A DNA stretch of 64,000 nucleotides from Oscarella lobularis. Its lineage: Eukaryota. The DNA lies in the NCBI RefSeq assembly GCF_947507565.1, contig NC_089177.1:490648-554647 (forward strand), read 5' to 3'. Shown in pieces: positions 24,869 to 60,159 of this stretch (position 1 is its first letter; every line of letters starts with the position of its first letter). A program made the translations under genes and the position numbers. Below the pieces are notes generated by a model. That model saw only the letters and a list, made by a program, of their open reading frames with translations. It was not told the DNA's origin and ran no database searches.

Positions 24869-25682
24869 CTCCAGCAGGTAAAACTAAAAGTCAATGCAGA
24901 GGACTTCGGGTACAAATGACGCATGATGATCTAAGGTGTACGCCCCCACAAATTTCCCGAGGGACATGCCCCTTTAGTAACAGTACCCTTACGTAGTCGC
25001 GCTACGGTACTCGCGTACAGTGGACGAGTCGATTCACAGCAGAACGTGCGCCTGTCATTAGTTAACGTTTTTAGGTCGATGCTTTAGTTTCGTGCGAGCG
25101 CGTGCGTTAATTCTTCGCTCCTGTACGCGTAAGTGTACGCGTAGGGTCACTCTACTCTACCTTCGCAAGTCTTCAACATGTGCTCAATCTTGGAGCGGCG
25201 ATTGATTTCAGGCTTTGACAAGCGAAGACCTGCTCAGACTCGCCTCCGAAAATGGCGATGAGCAACTGGCACGGGGACTTCCCATTGTGTCATTTTTACT
25301 CTGATTGGCTACTCCTCACATTATGGGCAGAACAGCGGCAAAGCGAAGTAGGAAAAGATCCGGTATAGCGCGGAAGTTTTATCATTTCAGAGAAGTTCTC
25401 TTTAATTAATTAAAGAACTTCTCCTCTGATTTATCTGCTATGATAATATCAAGTTTGTTTTTCTTTACGACAGTGCGACTAAGCCGACAGGAATATTCCC
25501 AACGCTAGCATGGCTTTCTTTGATTTTTCCCCAACGAAATTTCTATTCGTTGGGACGAATTGTAGCGCACGATGCTCTCACGTGAGTCAAAAATTCACGT
25601 GGTGAACATCCGCCTTTCGCGCGTATGAGGCTGTATGACGTCGTCACGCGAAGTCACGACTCAACGATCGTCGTAGAAGCAA
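24869..25682. promoter_or_regulatory. Divergent (bidirectional) promoter region between the minus-strand coiled-coil gene and the plus-strand SLC26 gene. It contains a near-palindromic element at 25388-25425.
   Basis: Both flanking genes start here and point away from each other. The element is agaaGTTCtcttTAATTAATTAaagaacTTCtcc: tandem homeodomain TAAT cores flanked by inverted GAAnnTTC (HSE-like) half-sites. Confidence 0.4.
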
Positions 25683-30648: not shown

Positions 30649-33213
30649 ATGGCATCGGTGATCGGTCTAAAACCGCTCGAGTACGTTCACATATTGGACG
30701 TTAACACGAGCGTCTCGTATGTGGAAACTGGCCCTCAAACAATATCTCTGCAAGACAACGAACGACTGACGGCGGGCCCCCATCCGTTCGTCGTCGTGCC
30801 CCCGGGTCGTTTCTGCATCGTTGAAGATCCCATCGATGCTACGACGTACGAAAAAGGAAAGCAGCCGCGCGTGCGCTTCGGCTCGCTCGACGTGCGCTTC
30901 CACGGCGAGCCTTTCTTTCTCTATCCGGGAGAACGACTTCAAGGAGCACCCAATTTAGCCAATTACAAGCCGGCACTCAAACCGCTTCCAGTCATAAAAC
31001 CGAACCACGGCCTCCGCCTCCGCGCTCGACACGATCACGTCGACGAAAACGGAACGAAACACGTTGCAGGCGAAGAATGGCACCTGGAGGGTCCCCTCAC
31101 CTACAAACCGACTCCGGACGCGGAAATCGTCGACACGATTTCTCCCGCCATCGTCGGCCCAAATCAAGCGCTTCGCTTTCGCGCGCGCGAGCGTTTCGTC
31201 GATCGCACGGGCGCCGAACGCGTCACAGGCGAAGAGTGGCTCGTTCGCGAAGCGGGCGCCTACGTGCCGCACGTCAGCGAAGAAGTCGTCGGCGTCGAGT
31301 CGGCGCACACGCTCACGCGCGATCGGGCGCTGCACGTGCGCGCGCGCGTTACGATCGACGGCGACTCGGCTCTCGGAAGCGCGCGCAAAACCGGCGAGGA
31401 GTGGCCTGTCACGTGCGAAAACGTATCCACCTTTATACCGGACGTGACGGAGGAAGTCGTCAAAGTCGTCAACAAAACGATTCTGACGAATATTCAATAT
31501 TGCGTTGTCGTCAATCCGGTTATCGACGGGAAAAATCGTCTCAGTCAACGACAGCTGCGTCGAGGTCCCGCCGAGTTTTTCCTATCGCCCGGGGAACACC
31601 TGGAACGCGGCATTCAGTCGGCGTTCATACTCGCCGTCGACGAGGCGCTCGTTCTCCGCGCAACGGAGGCGTTCGTCGACGACGAAACGCATCGCGCGCC
31701 CGGCGATCGATGGATGATCGAAGGTCCGACGTCGTACGTGCCGCCGACTCAAGTCGTCGTCGAGCGTCAATCGAAAGCGATACCGCTGGGCGAGAACGAA
31801 GGCGTTTACGTGCAAGACACGCAGACGGGTGCAGTGATCGCCGTCATGGGACCCCAGTCCTATCTACTCAAAGAACACGAGCAGCTCTTTGAGAAAAAAC
31901 TACCGGACGACGTCGAGGAGATGCTGCGACGCGGCGGCGCCATCGGCGACGACGACATTCGCAAGGTCGCTTATTTCGAATCGTCGATCGATCCGAGTCT
32001 CGTTCGATCCGGTGCGCGCGACGCGACGCGCGTCGTTTCCTATCGTTGCCCGGGCAACGCAGCGGTGCAGGTATACGATTATCAGCGTCGCACGGCGCGC
32101 GTCGTTTTTGGCCCAGATATGGTCATATTGGGTCCCCACGAGGATTTCAATGTGTTGAGCTTGAGCGCTGGGAAGCCGAAGCGTGAGAATGCGCTTCGCT
32201 GTCTCGCGCTCATGCTCGGACCCGATTTCATCACCGACATCATCGTCGTGGAGACGGCGGATCACGCGCGTCTGCGCATCAAACTTGCGTTCAATAATTA
32301 TTTTGACGTGAATTGCGACGACGTGGCGGACGCGGCGAAGATTTTCGCCGTGCCGGATTTCATTGGATTCGCCTGTCGCGACGTCGGGAGTCGCATTCGA
32401 AGTGCCGTCGCGCAGACGCCGTTCGACGAGTTCCATCGGCACTCGTCGCGGATTATACGAGCGTCCGTTTTCGGGCTCGACGCTCGGGGCAAAGTGAAGA
32501 ACGAGTTGCGATTCGCCGCGAATAATCTCGTCGTGACGAACATCGACGTGCAGAGCATCGAGCCCGTCGATCGTCAGATGAGCGATAGTTTGAGCAAGAG
32601 CGTTCAAATGGCTATCGAGATTGCCACGCAGGCGATCGAGCGTCAGGCGTCGCAGGAGGCGCGGAGACGCGAGCAGGAAGCGCGCGGCGTCCTGGAGCGG
32701 GAGAAATTGAAGGGGGAAATGGACGCGGAACGCGCCCGCATGGAGCTCTATGAATTACAGGCGATCAGTGCGGCCGTGGAGTCGACCGGTCAAGCGCAGG
32801 CCGAAGCCCAAGCGCAGGCTGAACGGCTTCTCATCGAAGGCGAGAGTGCGATCGAGTCGACGAAGCTTTTCGCCGAGGCGCAGGATGTTGAACATTCGGC
32901 GCTTCTCGACGCGAAGAAGAGATCGAATGAGGGCGAGTTGGGTTACGTGCGCGCGACGAATGAGCTCGAGTTGGCGAAGGCGAAAGCGTTGGCTGGGATC
33001 GAGGTCGGGAAGTTTCGGTCAATGGTGAGCGCGTTGGGATCGGAGACGGTTGCGGCGATCGCCCGCGCTGGGCCCGAGTCGGACATGCGTTTGTTGAAGT
33101 CGCTGGGGCTGCAGTCAACGTTGCTGACGGATGGGAAGAGTCCTGTCAATCTGTTCAACGTCGCTGGGGGATTGGTTGGAGCCACGATGGCAACGTCAGG
33201 CGATGCCCAGTGA
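30649..33213 (+). CDS. MVP: Major vault protein, intronless.
   Basis: Single 875-aa ORF. The N-terminus MASVIGLKPLEYVHILDVNTSVSYVETGPQTISLQDNERL matches the MVP start [37 protein letters not shown]. MVP repeats, a shoulder and a coiled-coil cap-helix region follow. Confidence 0.9.
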   Translation: MASVIGLKPLEYVHILDVNTSVSYVETGPQTISLQDNERLTAGPHPFVVVPPGRFCIVEDPIDATTYEKGKQPRVRFGSLDVRFHGEPFFLYPGERLQGAPNLANYKPALKPLPVIKPNHGLRLRARHDHVDENGTKHVAGEEWHLEGPLTYKPTPDAEIVDTISPAIVGPNQALRFRARERFVDRTGAERVTGEEWLVREAGAYVPHVSEEVVGVESAHTLTRDRALHVRARVTIDGDSALGSARKTGEEWPVTCENVSTFIPDVTEEVVKVVNKTILTNIQYCVVVNPVIDGKNRLSQRQLRRGPAEFFLSPGEHLERGIQSAFILAVDEALVLRATEAFVDDETHRAPGDRWMIEGPTSYVPPTQVVVERQSKAIPLGENEGVYVQDTQTGAVIAVMGPQSYLLKEHEQLFEKKLPDDVEEMLRRGGAIGDDDIRKVAYFESSIDPSLVRSGARDATRVVSYRCPGNAAVQVYDYQRRTARVVFGPDMVILGPHEDFNVLSLSAGKPKRENALRCLALMLGPDFITDIIVVETADHARLRIKLAFNNYFDVNCDDVADAAKIFAVPDFIGFACRDVGSRIRSAVAQTPFDEFHRHSSRIIRASVFGLDARGKVKNELRFAANNLVVTNIDVQSIEPVDRQMSDSLSKSVQMAIEIATQAIERQASQEARRREQEARGVLEREKLKGEMDAERARMELYELQAISAAVESTGQAQAEAQAQAERLLIEGESAIESTKLFAEAQDVEHSALLDAKKRSNEGELGYVRATNELELAKAKALAGIEVGKFRSMVSALGSETVAAIARAGPESDMRLLKSLGLQSTLLTDGKSPVNLFNVAGGLVGATMATSGDAQ

Positions 33214-33428: not shown

Positions 33429-35216
33429 TTGGGCGCCAATAGAGTTATGAGCGACTTCTATGAGGACTTTATTCGGCCCCAGCTAACGGAGCTGATGAAG
33501 AAAATTGACGTTACCGACCATCAAATGTTGAGCTACATGTACCAGGAAAAAATGATAACGGAGGACGACCAACACAATCTGGCAGCCACGTCGCAGATGT
33601 CACCCTCGGAGAAACAAAGATTGTTTTTTCAGACCATTCTAGCACGCGGGCTGGGCTCGGAAGCCAAATTCCGCACGTTTTGTACCGCTTTGACGAAACG
33701 ACGGGGAGCCCACATGGACGATTTGGCTCAGTTGCTTTTGGCCCACGCTAAGCTAGAAGGTAAGCTCATGAATGTGTTGTTCTAACAAGTTAGTGAGGCA
33801 TATCTGCTAGATAGAACACAGCACTCCATGACGTCACGAGGTACCTTACTCTTTTTTATCGCGCTTCGGTACGTGAGGAAACATGACCTGTTGTACAGTA
33901 GGTTTGAAGCGGTCCAGAGCACATGGCGAGTTGCAAACAGCAAAAAAATCAAAGGCTTCTTCACCTGCACCTGAAGGTACCGCAGGCCCGTCATTAGCTG
34001 CGGCGACCATGTTGAATTTAAATCTTTGAGTTTTTTTGTTGCAGATGAACCAGACGGGCCAAGCCGCCGTCGACGCATGAAGCGAAAAAATCCCAGTCGA
34101 AAAGCGATGCGAGAAGGTCGCCGTTCGCAAGAAGCGAAGCGAAAAATTCATCTCTTGGTAGTTTGTGCTCTACCAAAAGAGTTGGAAGCCGCAAAGGATG
34201 CTATAGGAGCACAAGAATGGGAAGAAATCAGGAGTGGAACAATGGGCTATCGCGTCTTTGTTGCTGATGTAACGTGGAAGAATCATTCAAAGAAAAACGA
34301 AATTCGTGTGACTGTAGGAGTTGTAGCTCAATCAAAATCAGGGGGTCAAGAGACTTCCAACTTGCTTGGATCTCTTAACAGTCAATTTGATGTCAATTTT
34401 CTTGCCATGACCGGCTGCTGCGCTGGTGTTGAAGACGTTGACTGCTACAGCGTTATAGTAGCGGATAAGACCACCGCTTTGGAAAGAGAAAAGCATCTCG
34501 AAAGCGCAGTTCAACATCAAGTGGGCCCTGGTGGTGATCTAGAGCACGAATTAATTCAAGCTGTGAATTCACTTCTGATGGATTTGAAGACGTCAGACTG
34601 GCTTGATCCAGAGGTTTCTAGCACTGCTCCACCAAGTCCTCGGCTAGTCCGCGAGTCATTGCTCAAAGCAATTGAGGACAGTGGGAAATCCAGCAAGGAC
34701 GCCATAGAAAAAGCCGTACAGGAGATAAAAAATGTCAACAAAGATATCTACCCAAACATCCTAAATAAGCTCGTCAAAGAAGGCTTGATAGAAAAGCGAG
34801 AAGAAAAAGAGCCTCAGATGCGAATCCTATACTGCCTGTCTGCCGAAGGTGCCAAACACGTTAGTGAGCTTCCCTTCGGTCTTCTATCGCCGGACAAAGA
34901 TCCTTCTGTGCGTGTAACGACACTGTTCACGTGTCAGGACGTTCTCGTCAATCTTAAGAGTGTTCTTCCGAAATTGAAGGAAGCCACAGGCCAACGAAAG
35001 ATAACCGGTGTTGACATGGAAGCTCATCATTTTATGGTGCAGGCAAAGCATTTTTTCCCCAAGTCTTCGTGCATTGTAATGAAAGGGGTTTCTGACCACG
35101 GATCGCCAGAATCAAAAGAAAAATACAATCAAGAGTATGCGTCCAAGTGTGCGACATTGTTTTTGAAGTATTTCTTGGAAAAGAACTTTGAGTATCTGGA
35201 GAAGAAAAAGAACTAA
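33429..35216 (+). CDS. CARD (death-fold) - PNP_UDP nucleoside-phosphorylase/nucleosidase fusion protein. Exons 33429-33759 and 34045-35216, joined by a 285-bp phase-1 GT-AG intron.
   Basis: Exon 1 is a CARD-like domain that is about 65% identical to the CARD of the CRADD-like gene at 37338: FYEDFIRPQLTELMKKIDVTDHQMLSYMYQEKMITEDDQHNL...FRTFCTALTKRRGAHMDDLAQLLL. Exon 2 is a PNP_UDP_1 domain: IHLLVVCALPKELEAAKD...VFVADV...VGVVAQSKSGG...FLAMTGCCAGVEDVDCYSVIVAD...ITGVDMEAHHFMVQAK...CIVMKGVSDHGS. MTAN-type catalytic E/E/D positions appear conserved. The splice frame was verified: G + at gives GAT. Confidence 0.7.
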
Positions 35217-35316
35217 TTTTTTTGACTTTTGATGTCTTTGCGTTTTTGCTTGCTCGTTGCACCTTGTTGCGCTCCCATTGGTACAGGTATGGATACAAGG
35301 CTGAGCATGCGCAAAG

Positions 35317-37233
35317 ATGGACGCTATTTTGAGAAAGAACTTCGTGTTTCTGCGTCGCAATCTTCGCCTGAAGAAGGAATTGTTAGCTTATATGTTTCAG
35401 GAACATTTAATCGATGACGAGGAATATGATCAGTTGGAAAACGAAGCCAAATCAGAGCCGGAAAGAGTTAGGTACTTCATTATGACGGCAATGAGAGGAA
35501 AAACGAAGTCCGATTTACGAAGACTCGTTCAAATGCTCAGAAAAACAAACCAAGAGCCAGTCGCTCACCGTCTCGAACGTGCAAACGTCAGAAAAAAGAA
35601 ATGGTCGAAACGACTGAGGAAAAGGGCGATGCCTTACCTTTCTAGTCTGGTAGTATTTGTGTTTGTACACAAGTTGCTCTGGCGTACGTACCAGGCGAAC
35701 AAACCGCACGTTGAAAAGGTCCTCAAAATAATCTTCGGTAAAAGGCCAGAAATTAAAGAAGGAATTATGCCGGAGAACTCCAATAGCGACACTTCTGACC
35801 CATCAAAAAACCACACACTTGAGATTAAGGAAAGAGTAAAACTGCGCTTTTATTTTCCAAATCTACCAAAAGACACCTACAAAATAGTGGAAGAAGGTCT
35901 CCGATCCAGTCTTTCACTTTCTCTGGATCTTCCCAGAGACCTCTTAGAGGTGTTTGCAAAACCGTTTTCGTCAGTTCTTGTCATTGTCATTCTACCTGGC
36001 GCTGCTGCGCTGAAATTGTTTTCCATTTTGTCTAAGCCTCTACCTAATTTTCTGTATGAAAAATACGGGCCAACTCGTCTTAAGATTGAGAGTTTGCGCC
36101 CAATGAATATTTTATTTGAGAAGGCTTTTGGTATGTAACTTGTCAGAAGATAGAGTATAACAGTACATTTTCTATTTCCTGTAGAGCGGAACTGGGGCTC
36201 ACGAGCTTGGATCCAAGGTCAAGTGGCCCGTCTAAACGAATGTAGGAAAAATTTTCATCAACTCAAGACTCAGTTATCTTACTGGCTACCCCCTCCGTGG
36301 TGGCAAAAAGCAACAAAAAACCGTTTCAGGAAATTTCAGAGTCAACTGGATCACGTTCAAGATGAAATGCAGGCCTTGAAGGACAGTTTCAGCAAGCTGA
36401 GTCTCCTGCCTAAACCCCAGGCTGTTGAAGTTTCTACGCAAACCGAATTACAAGAAGGTACAGGGAACGCCTAGTAGGTGCAATGATTGATTAATTAGTT
36501 ATTAATCCTAGACGATGGCAGATGGTCAGAGACAATAATGTTTCGGGAGTCTTTTTCTCCACAAAGCGGTTTTGCCCTAATAATTAACACCGTTTCACCT
36601 GAAAGTGAATTACATTCTCAAGCACAATCAGAGACAAATAGTCTTCTGTCTACGTTCAAAAAGTTGGGTCTTGTTTGCAAAACAGAAACAAGCGTTAAAT
36701 CAGGTGACGTGAGCGATACACTCGAAAATTTTGGCAATTGCGACTACGCAAAGTACGACTGGCTAGTGTGCTGTCTCCTGGTAGCCATGGAGAAGATGAA
36801 AACAGGCCGTGACTCAGCGGAAGACTGCTCGCCTCTGTGTCTTCACGACATTATGGCGCCGTTTAGAGAATCTAGATGCCCTACCCTTAGTGGAAAGCCT
36901 CGCGTTTTTATTATCATTTCGCCAGCTGGAAGGTCAATTGATGAAACTGGCGATATGCACGTGGAATTCAAAGACGATGAATGGACTTTGCGAGAGGGTT
37001 ATGTTCCCAAAGACTGCCTGCTGCTAGTGTTTCATTACCCCGCTCCAGAGGACAAGCGCTCTTCTTTCGCTACATCATTGCTTGATAATCTACAACAACA
37101 AGGTGGGCAGTTGAACGATGTGGAAGAACTGCTCTTTATGGCATATGATCAACTAATTGATAGTCTGCTTTGGTCTTCGGTGTGGAGTAAGAATACGTTG
37201 AGTAAGGCAATAGAGGTGGCTCTTGAGACTTGA
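35317..37233 (+). CDS. CARD - coiled-coil - caspase-like (peptidase C14 fold) protein that lacks the catalytic dyad, i.e. a pseudo-caspase. Exons 35317-36130, 36185-36457 and 36512-37233, all joined by about 54-bp phase-1 introns.
   Basis: N-terminal death-fold: ILRKNFVFLRRNLRLKKELLAYMFQEHLIDDEEYDQLENEAKSEPERVRYFIMTAMRGKTKSDLRRLVQMLRK. Middle exon is a coiled coil. Last exon aligns to caspase p20/p10: GFALIINTVSPESE...LLSTFKKLGLVC...YDWLVCCLLVAMEK (AME where caspases have SHG) ...RCPTLSGKPRVFIIISPAGRS (SPAG where caspases have QACRG). Donor, acceptor and phase were checked at each junction. Confidence 0.65.
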
Positions 37234-37337
37234 CAAGTTCTACATTTTTTTGCGCGATGATGTTTTATAGACTTTTTCAGACTTTTATTTTGCCCATTGG
37301 AGTTGAAGGGGAGCACACGTGATCTGCTGCGAGGACT

Positions 37338-37946
37338 ATGAGCCGCTACTACGAAAAGTGCATTCGGCCTCGACTAACGGAGCTGATGAAGAGAATCGAC
37401 GTTACTGATCATCAAATGCTGAGCTTCATGAACCAGGAAAAGATGCTGTCGGACAACGACCAACACAATCTGGAATCCACTTCCCTGATGCGACCCTCTG
37501 AGAAAGATAATCTATTCTTTCACACCATTCTAAGAACCGGACTGGCCACGGAAACTCAGTTCCGCGCGTTTTGCGCCGCTTTGACGAAACGACGAGGAGC
37601 CGAAAAGGACGATTTGGCTCAATCTCTTTTGAAAGGCGCCGGCCTCGAAAGTGAAAGCGCGTCGCGTACTTCGTTTGAAAGGAAGCCAACTTCTAAAGAG
37701 CTGAACAACTTATCGAAGCTAATAGCGAGCGACGACATGTGGAAGCCGCTCGGCAGATGTCTCGATGTTCCGGACTCGAAGTTGACCGAAATCGCAGCCA
37801 CGCATCATTCTCCTCGAGAACGAGCGTACCAAATGCTACAGTCGTGGGTCGAAAAGAACTCGAACGCCGCAACGGTGAAACTACTGTGCGAAGCACTCTG
37901 TGAAGAGGGTCGCGACGATACGGCAAAGGAAATTTTTGGCTGGTGA
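37338..37946 (+). CDS. CRADD: CRADD/RAIDD-like adaptor (CARD + death domain), single exon.
   Basis: 202 aa. The N-terminal CARD is a paralogue of the CARD at 33429. The C-terminal death domain reads ELNNLSKLIASDDMWKPLGRCLDVPDSKLTEIAATHHSPRERAYQMLQSWVEKNSNAATVKLLCEALCEEGRDDTAKEIFG. Size and architecture match human CRADD (199 aa). Confidence 0.65.
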   Translation: MSRYYEKCIRPRLTELMKRIDVTDHQMLSFMNQEKMLSDNDQHNLESTSLMRPSEKDNLFFHTILRTGLATETQFRAFCAALTKRRGAEKDDLAQSLLKGAGLESESASRTSFERKPTSKELNNLSKLIASDDMWKPLGRCLDVPDSKLTEIAATHHSPRERAYQMLQSWVEKNSNAATVKLLCEALCEEGRDDTAKEIFGW

Positions 37947-38158
37947 CGATCGAGCATGCAGACGCGGAATATCGCGGCTTCGTTTTGTGTGGTAGAATTC
38001 TAAGAAACGCTATCTGATGAGGGAAAAAAAAGGAAAAGAACGCACGCAGAACCCCAGGACAACCACATACATTACATAGAATAAGAACGGTAAGATTGAA
38101 GAACGGTAAGAAAAGTTGGTAGTCATAGTTCTTATACGAGTTTTGTTTTTCTCCGCGA

Positions 38159-59012: not shown

Positions 59013-60159
59013 TTTCGCGACGACGCTTTCTACGTCGTTTACACTGCAAATGCCACGAACGCCATATGCCGTTGTTGAGTCGAAGTCGCTCGTTTCGCTC
59101 TGGAACGTCGTCATGTTCTTCCAGTGTTTCCATTTGCGGATGAACGAGCCCCGTGCTGCCAAGACGACGACGTCAGAGGCGACGAAACGCGACGCAATTC
59201 GCTTGCCTGCAAGTAGCTCCGGCGATTCAGAATGCAATCGGGACGCTCTGTATTTCCATGAGCCCCTTCCTCAAGGACGTCGCGCACATGCGATGTCAGA
59301 GAAACTCGACACTCAAAACGGCCGAGGTCCCCTAAGGGGAAACGAGCGGAGAAAAACGCTACAAAGGCTTGCGAAGAAGGAAGACTCCAGATACCTTGGA
59401 CTCAAGCTTGGCACGGCTTCCGAACAGCGAAGAGCAACCTCTTGCAACAGCGAACAGCCGCATGCTCGCTCGAGCGCAATCTAAAAAGAGCTTCATGCTA
59501 AACTGGATGCGTCAGTGTGTAGAAAACGAACCCGAATGAGCCGAGGAGTCTCCGGTATCGATGAGGAGCGTTCGAGAGAAATCTCCTGCTCGAGGCGTCG
59601 AAGCAGCTACAGTACGGGACGTGAAGCACGTGATCAGAGTACATGTAATAGGACTGCATCAGCAGCTCCCGTACAAGTAAATTTGCTGCAGTACTTGGTG
59701 TTCAGATTTCTTTCTTTAGACATTTATTTTTTCCCCCGAGGGGATGCACCGAGCCCGGAGGTAGTGCAAAACCGGGACGATGCGCGAGAGAGGCGCAGCA
59801 AGCTGCATTCCTCATCTCTAATTCCAAAGATTAAGTTAATCTTGGAGCCGGGCGATGCCCGGCGTCTCAGAGATTAAACTGAGAAGAACAGATACTACAC
59901 TTGATCTTAGCCAAAAGGCCGAGAAGCGATAACGATGACTGCTTCGCGCTCGGTTATATACCCTTTCTAGGGTTACTTCAATTGTTGAGGATGGCGCACA
60001 AAAGTGATTCTAACGCAGCCGTAAGCACCAGATTCTATCTATATCTTTCATCTGTGCACAACGCTGTTTCGCTTTGGCTTATCTTTCGCCTGCTTCTTAC
60101 GTTCAGCTGACGACGTTCTGAGAGGAACGTTCTAACGTACTCGATTGTCACGTGATAAG

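Follow-up and report, generated by a model that had tools for sequence, protein, structure and literature searches.

A probable single-exon CARD-death domain adaptor gene beside two other CARD genes in the sponge Oscarella lobularis

Adaptors of the CRADD type, in which a CARD is joined to a death domain (DD), connect effectors that carry a CARD with DD sensors, and their early evolution has yet to be settled. Here, we describe a 202-aa protein of this architecture encoded in the homoscleromorph sponge Oscarella lobularis, at positions 37338-37946 of a 64,000-nt stretch of contig NC_089177.1 (positions 490,648 to 554,647 of the forward strand; hereafter the window), where it lies immediately downstream of two further CARD genes on the same strand, designated gene A and gene B. 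CRADD homologues have been reported in molluscs, annelids and brachiopods, in which PIDD was not detected (PMC11463336), and have been used in cnidarian CARD phylogenies (PMC7586219), while a "CRADD-like" DEATH gene of the demosponge Dysidea avara is induced by microbial patterns (PMC6208332). Similarly, the fusion of Death-superfamily domains to caspase or PNPase effectors is a described theme in sponges, with expansions in Amphimedon (PMC8195603). The protein encoded here resembles the invertebrate CRADD homologues by description, these being CARD and DD adaptors of non-vertebrates proposed to activate CARD caspases with no PIDD detected; however, none of them was among its search matches. 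Genes A and B follow the sponge theme in attaching a swappable effector (PNPase-like and caspase-like, respectively) to a death-fold domain, as well as in their apparently fast evolution and lineage-specific architecture. In contrast to these genes, the CARD-DD protein has no effector, only two adaptor domains, and the described sponge proteins usually carry TRADD-N, which was not detected here.

The CARD-DD open reading frame (ORF) runs on the forward strand from ATG to TGA over 202 codons plus the stop, and agrees with a preliminary description of the window, made from the sequence alone, as an intronless 202-aa frame encoding CARD then DD, with the size and architecture of human CRADD (199 aa). 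An in-frame TGA is located 18 nt before the ATG (37320-37322), a purine occupies position -3, and the initial Met lines up with that of the paralogous gene A. Owing to this upstream stop and the aligned start, the full N-terminal domain is contained in the ORF, and an upstream coding exon in frame is neither needed nor possible. No catalytic or other domain was found in the protein beyond CARD and DD. We consider it likely that the ORF, which is intact and conserved in two haplotypes and whose two domains can be identified, ordered and bounded, is a functional single-exon gene for a minimal two-domain death-fold adaptor, comprising a CARD, an unstructured linker of ~18 residues and a DD.

The preliminary description made its proposal depend on the C-terminal half, and this half clearly matches the Pfam Death profile (PF00531; 57.6 bits against a cut-off of 22.6, E = 1.4e-15) over residues 123-200, corresponding to model positions 5-83 of 86. 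The domain is assigned to approximately residues 119-200 (37692-37937, forward strand) and forms six helices in an AlphaFold2 (AF2) model based on a 16-row alignment, with a predicted local distance difference test (pLDDT) score of 63-75. Its nearest sequences in the PDB are the DDs of THOC1, RIPK1, NRADD and TRADD, and a Foldseek search with the C-terminal half of the model returned the DDs of ankyrin, FADD, TRADD and DR3. The two domains are separated by a predicted flexible linker (approximately residues 101-118; 37638-37691, forward strand) lacking regular secondary structure, with pLDDT below 50 at residues 106-116, and five of the eight amino-acid differences between the protein and its haplotig counterpart are located in or beside it (residues 99-118).

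The N-terminal half is assigned to the CARD family by indirect evidence from profiles and modelling, an assignment that we consider secure. The domain comprises approximately residues 2-100 (37341-37637, forward strand), with six predicted helices at residues 3-19, 25-33, 39-47, 53-68, 72-86 and 92-100. The paralogous N-terminal domains of genes A and B reached 16.6 and 16.2 bits with Pfam CARD (PF00619), below the threshold of 23.9 bits. A profile of the three paralogous domains, searched exhaustively against 1.84 billion representative proteins, matched 19 proteins, two of which are haplotig copies of the same locus. Among the 17 others, 11 pass the Pfam CARD threshold (E from 4e-11 to 7e-4) and two are borderline, the matched stretch lying on the CARD in each; the remaining four are repetitive proteins and look spurious. 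A hidden Markov model (HMM) built from the CARD regions of these 13 external proteins alone matched the N-terminal 111 aa at 46 bits (residues 2-97) and the CARD of gene A at 59.9 bits. Against PDB sequences, the three-sequence family profile gave spurious matches only (AUGMIN and a designed coiled coil), and the enlarged profile matched 103 sequences at E<=1, of which the 60 listed were all CARDs or CARD-based designs. Among the PDB matches listed, the RAIDD CARD was best (3.8e-11), with the Apaf-1 CARD near-equal (1.2e-10), and the motif LxYLYQExxL is shared with RAIDD. In the 16-row AF2 model, pLDDT was 81-91 over residues 1-80, the N-terminal half aligned to the Apaf-1 CARD with a TM score of 0.80 in Foldseek, and its six-helix bundle was nearer to CARD structures than to DD, DED or PYD structures. 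One further alignment (A3) was dropped, as MAFFT had stacked added DD fragments onto CARD columns. Thus, of the profile assignment of both halves called for in the preliminary description, the DD was confirmed directly by Pfam and the CARD through family and external CARD profiles, but not by Pfam itself.

The resemblance to CRADD/RAIDD is closest in architecture. Both proteins consist of an N-terminal CARD, a short linker and a C-terminal DD and nothing else, their lengths are 202 and 199 aa, their domain boundaries coincide, and the helix-2/3 motif L-x-(Y/F)-(L/M)-x-Q-E-x-(I/M)-L is common to both. Comparison with the human CRADD sequence (P78560, verified against PDB chains 3crd for the CARD, and 2of5 and 2o71 for the DD) nonetheless revealed weak similarity only. 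BLASTP aligned the DD alone (19% identity over 72 residues, E = 5e-4 in a single comparison), hhalign aligned residues 24-189 colinearly with residues 23-186 (21% identity, at a probability of just 11.6%), and the CRADD chains were absent from the PDB sequence matches of the ORF at E<=10. Accordingly, the likeness to CRADD claimed in the preliminary description stands for architecture, size and boundaries and not for identity, and descent from CRADD is not established by sequence comparison. A protein search with the ORF returned the haplotig copy only, and a search with the 16-row alignment returned only sequences already in the query, with no named CRADD relatives. The domain order, size and boundaries, the colinear alignment, the rank of the RAIDD CARD together with its shared LxYLYQExxL motif, and the homologues reported in molluscs, annelids and brachiopods, in cnidarians and in D. 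avara would all be expected of a true sponge CRADD/RAIDD orthologue. Within a PIDDosome-like complex, the DD of such an orthologue would bind a PIDD1-like ZU5-UPA-DD protein, and through its CARD it would recruit and activate a CARD caspase of the caspase-2 type, whose gene would lie in another part of the genome. We nevertheless regard such orthology as unlikely. The proteins share ~19%-21% identity with no database-level match, the DD is nearer to those of THOC1, RIPK1 and NRADD, and, unlike in CRADD, the CARD is a local duplicate of the CARD exon of a neighboring gene. Nor does the 64-kb window hold a PIDD1-like protein or an active caspase-2-like partner, the genomic neighbor being a pseudocaspase: no PIDD-like/ZU5 gene, second DD, further CARD or active caspase was found in it by Pfam or tblastn, and tblastn searches for more DD or CARD genes gave weak matches only (E>0.1), in ORFs where Pfam found nothing.

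How the CARD arose bears on this question and on the suggestion, made in the preliminary description, that an intronless copy could reflect retroposition. DNA similarity between the CARD-DD gene and gene A extends from the ATG to the exon-1 splice donor of gene A (GAAG followed by GTAAGC, against GAAAGTGAAAGC in the CARD-DD gene), and the flanks on both sides are unrelated. Because the similarity ends at the donor, its footprint points to an exon-sized genomic duplication rather than to the copying of a spliced mRNA. The sequences themselves are compatible with two histories, in which the CARD was either derived by duplication or shuffling of this exon or kept similar by gene conversion with gene A. 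When exon 1 of gene A in haplotig L001 was compared with window positions 33447-33530 and 37338-37420, the CARD N-terminus of the haplotig gene A (MSSYFKKCIRPRLMELM...) was nearer to that of the CARD-DD protein (MSRYYEKCIRPRLTELM...) than is the N-terminus of the window gene A (MSDFYEDFIRPQLTELM...), which suggests ongoing gene conversion between the two CARD exons. Since the CARD came from, or is maintained by, exchange with gene A, the CRADD-like architecture may be lineage-specific rather than inherited. Origin as a processed retrogene, by retroposition from a CARD-DD parent with introns, would explain the single-exon coding sequence and the A-rich tract (AAAAAAAAGGAAAAG) at 38024-38038 (forward strand), ~78 nt past the stop, yet is barely credible. 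With the one paralogue that could be detected, similarity ends precisely at the exon-1 donor and the flanks are unrelated. No CARD-DD parent was found in the window or in database searches, nor was a related locus confirmed in a scan of metagenome contigs. Moreover, intron-poor coding sequences are usual at this locus (none in MVP, one intron in gene A, two in gene B), contrary to the statement that most neighboring genes have many introns; SLC26 (a 752-aa gene call) and the ankyrin gene (373 aa) each read as one long ORF, and only some more distant genes (ENTH/epsin, 5'-nucleotidase) appear split into several pieces. The A-rich tract sits in a 212-nt spacer shared with a convergent Dok-like gene.

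Whether the ORF is maintained as a protein-coding gene was assessed against haplotig-like copies present at ~96% identity to the window in the same assembly (ENA ERZ18545485). In haplotig L001 the ORF is intact, with no indels, and at 97.4% nt identity it is the best-conserved segment of the cluster, compared with 92%-95% for the exons of genes A and B and 94%-97% for introns and spacers. Several points weigh against reading it as a functional adaptor gene. Its dN/dS of 0.36 (7 synonymous and 9 non-synonymous changes; one-sided binomial P = 0.044) is a selection signal drawn from 16 substitutions only. The ORF has no counterpart within any NCBI protein, even though the adjacent MVP and gene B agree exactly with their NCBI models and any embedding protein would have been matched; the exact protein sequence is present only among ENA gene calls. 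No canonical poly(A) hexamer was found by regex scan between the stop of gene B (37233) and the ATG, 104 nt downstream, so the ORF might lie in the 3' untranslated region (UTR) of gene B. As to the CARD, neither the full ORF nor its N-terminal 111 aa was matched by the Pfam profile at a limit as permissive as E<=10; the external CARDs were picked by similarity to the family of this protein and then reused in the AF2 alignment, which makes the HMM and AF2 tests partly circular; and AF2 with a shallow four-sequence alignment reached a pLDDT of 54.6, unfit for fold search, with the pattern of six helices, linker and six helices already visible. Finally, the partners proposed for the CARD are inferred from adjacency, shared orientation and CARD similarity, and the window contains no DD partner. 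Taken furthest, these points would describe a non-functional leftover, a recent chimeric duplicate in the gene B 3' UTR that is transcribed and not translated, which would account for an NCBI annotation that matches the neighbors exactly but lacks this protein, in a cluster whose other genes evolve fast (dN/dS of 0.7-0.9). This is very unlikely, as the frame is free of indels in both haplotypes while the flanking intergenic DNA has them, the segment is the most conserved of the cluster, both domains still score as well-formed death folds, and the ORF, in common with other genes of the window, is preceded by an E-box of its own and by a purine at -3.

The gene appears to be unannotated in the O. 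lobularis reference, and automated annotation may have absorbed the ORF into the gene B 3' UTR. The absence of an AATAAA-like hexamer between the two genes may explain this; a single poly(A)-signal-like hexamer, AATAAG at 38080-38085, occurs on the forward strand between the gene B stop and the convergent Dok-like gene. A fusion of gene B with the CARD-DD ORF was ruled out by their differing frames, the in-frame stop at 37320, the start Met aligned to that of gene A and the NCBI model ending at 37233. A CACGTG E-box at 37316-37321, 17-22 nt upstream of the ATG, is a candidate promoter-proximal element and lends weak support to a promoter belonging to the gene itself. The window contains 26 CACGTG sites against 13.8 expected, a number reached in none of 100 shuffles, and the motif often precedes a start codon by no more than 100 nt, as in SLC26, MVP, gene A, the CARD-DD gene and the ankyrin (Ank) gene; examples of sites in the window are those at 25579, 25596, 30625, 33316, 33387, 37316 and 45091. 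Many promoters of the O. lobularis genome may therefore have CACGTG as a proximal element. The longer sequence GCACGTGA, considered as a specific shared motif, was rejected because it is not enriched (5 sites against 2.6 expected), only the core CACGTG being so.

Gene A is predicted to encode 494 aa in two exons separated by one canonical GT-AG phase-1 intron (33760-34044), with a frame that is open in both the window and the haplotig. Exon 1 (33447-33759, forward strand) carries the paralogous CARD, with 64%-68% aa and 77% nt identity to that of the CARD-DD protein and a Pfam CARD E-value of 0.0079. Exon 2 (34045-35216, forward strand) encodes a phosphorylase/nucleosidase-superfamily-like effector region with a possible winged helix-turn-helix insert, which matched the anti-phage models of PADLOC (PDC-M60C, E = 9.6e-18; "Effector PN-superfamily," E = 1.1e-8) and Pfam only weakly (PNP_UDP_1 and PadR). 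From these matches, gene A looks like a CARD-tethered effector of the phosphorylase/nucleosidase type. The exact 494-aa spliced model was absent from the protein collection searched, and the NCBI annotation may contain another model of the gene or none.

Gene B (35317-36130, 36185-36457 and 36512-37233, forward strand) encodes, in three exons, a 602-aa spliced product identical to NCBI XP_065828206.1 ("uncharacterized protein"). Its CARD shares 22%-26% identity with that of the CARD-DD protein and is followed by a strongly hydrophobic segment (approximately residues 217-238) and a caspase-like domain (Pfam Peptidase_C14, E = 4.7e-10). Alignment to caspase-3 showed SHG replaced by VA- and QACRG by ISPAG, that is, the catalytic His by Ala and the catalytic Cys by Pro, and the haplotig copy also lacks the catalytic Cys. 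On this alignment, gene B is a catalytically dead CARD pseudocaspase and, without catalytic residues, is therefore likely to be a regulator or scaffold rather than a protease. Pseudocaspases of the c-FLIP type, c-FLIP being DED-containing, regulate and do not execute. Gene B resembles c-FLIP in having a death-fold recruitment domain followed by a caspase-like domain minus the catalytic Cys and His; however, c-FLIP has tandem DEDs instead of a CARD, gene B has a hydrophobic, possibly membrane segment, and the two are unrelated beyond the caspase fold. A separate caspase gene starting at 36538 was ruled out, since that Met is Arg in the haplotig, making the ORF an internal exon of gene B, and the exon is part of XP_065828206.1. 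The NCBI isoform X2 of gene B (XP_065828209.1, 367 aa) departs from the longer product where exons 2 and 3 meet, an alternative acceptor being the probable cause, and terminates short of the caspase-like domain. The adjoining putative partners mentioned in the preliminary description are therefore present as two CARD genes immediately upstream on the same strand, but the neighboring "caspase" lacks the catalytic dyad.

Relative to the haplotig, dN/dS was 0.77 for gene A, 0.68 for gene B and 0.90 for the caspase-like exon, a pattern pointing to rapid or diversifying evolution in genes A and B such as immune genes typically show. The exons of both genes (33447-37233) differ by 5%-8% between haplotypes, at least as much as their introns, with open frames and exon indel totals divisible by three.

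Upstream of the cluster, the intronless MVP gene (30649-33213, forward strand; 854 aa) is 100% identical to XP_065828200.1 of O. lobularis, the next-best matches, among them one in Corticium candelabrum (also a homoscleromorph), having 65%-66% identity. A second O. lobularis MVP paralogue (P0135), 50% identical, is located elsewhere in the genome. The rest of the window contains Forkhead, PP1-binding protein, SLC26, ENTH, Dok-like PH+PTB, 5'-nucleotidase, ankyrin, RasGEF and JmjC genes, as well as a full-length U2 spliceosomal snRNA gene at 59739-59930 on the reverse strand (Rfam RF00004, 181 bits). ENA ERZ18545485 is filed as a metagenome and includes megabase-scale sponge host contigs and haplotigs (ptg000071l, atg000205l and ptg000273l), the window lying on a 1.18-Mb contig; its gene calls are prokaryote-style, and exons of spliced genes are consequently listed as separate "proteins."

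Since the CARD-DD protein holds two homotypic-interaction domains only, the best-supported function would be that of a bipartite adaptor, by analogy with CRADD/RAIDD. Its DD would be incorporated into a homotypic DD oligomer seeded by an upstream sensor or receptor that bears a DD. CARD proteins would then be recruited by the CARD of the adaptor through homotypic CARD-CARD assembly, the most plausible clients being the products of genes A and B, which directly precede it on the same strand. It is conceivable, though quite improbable in our view, that the three neighboring CARD genes, all on one strand, constitute a death-fold cassette specific to sponges. In this cassette the adaptor would couple a DD receptor to the gene A effector, with gene B as a membrane-associated regulator, and the resulting pathway of immunity or cell death would target nucleotides independently of caspases, its coherence being preserved by gene conversion of CARD exons. 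If so, an effector related to those of bacterial anti-phage systems would operate in such a pathway in an early-branching animal.

The CARD-DD architecture itself is already known, and the interest of the locus is modest, lying mainly in the apparently missing annotation and the unusual CARD cluster. It adds a clean example of a CARD-DD protein from a homoscleromorph sponge, one apparently missing from the reference protein set. The architecture can be built locally by duplication of a CARD exon, which calls for caution in deducing orthology or PIDDosome function from architecture alone. In addition, the CARD-nucleosidase-like gene A and the CARD pseudocaspase gene B provide concrete candidates for the proteins recruited by adaptors of early animals.
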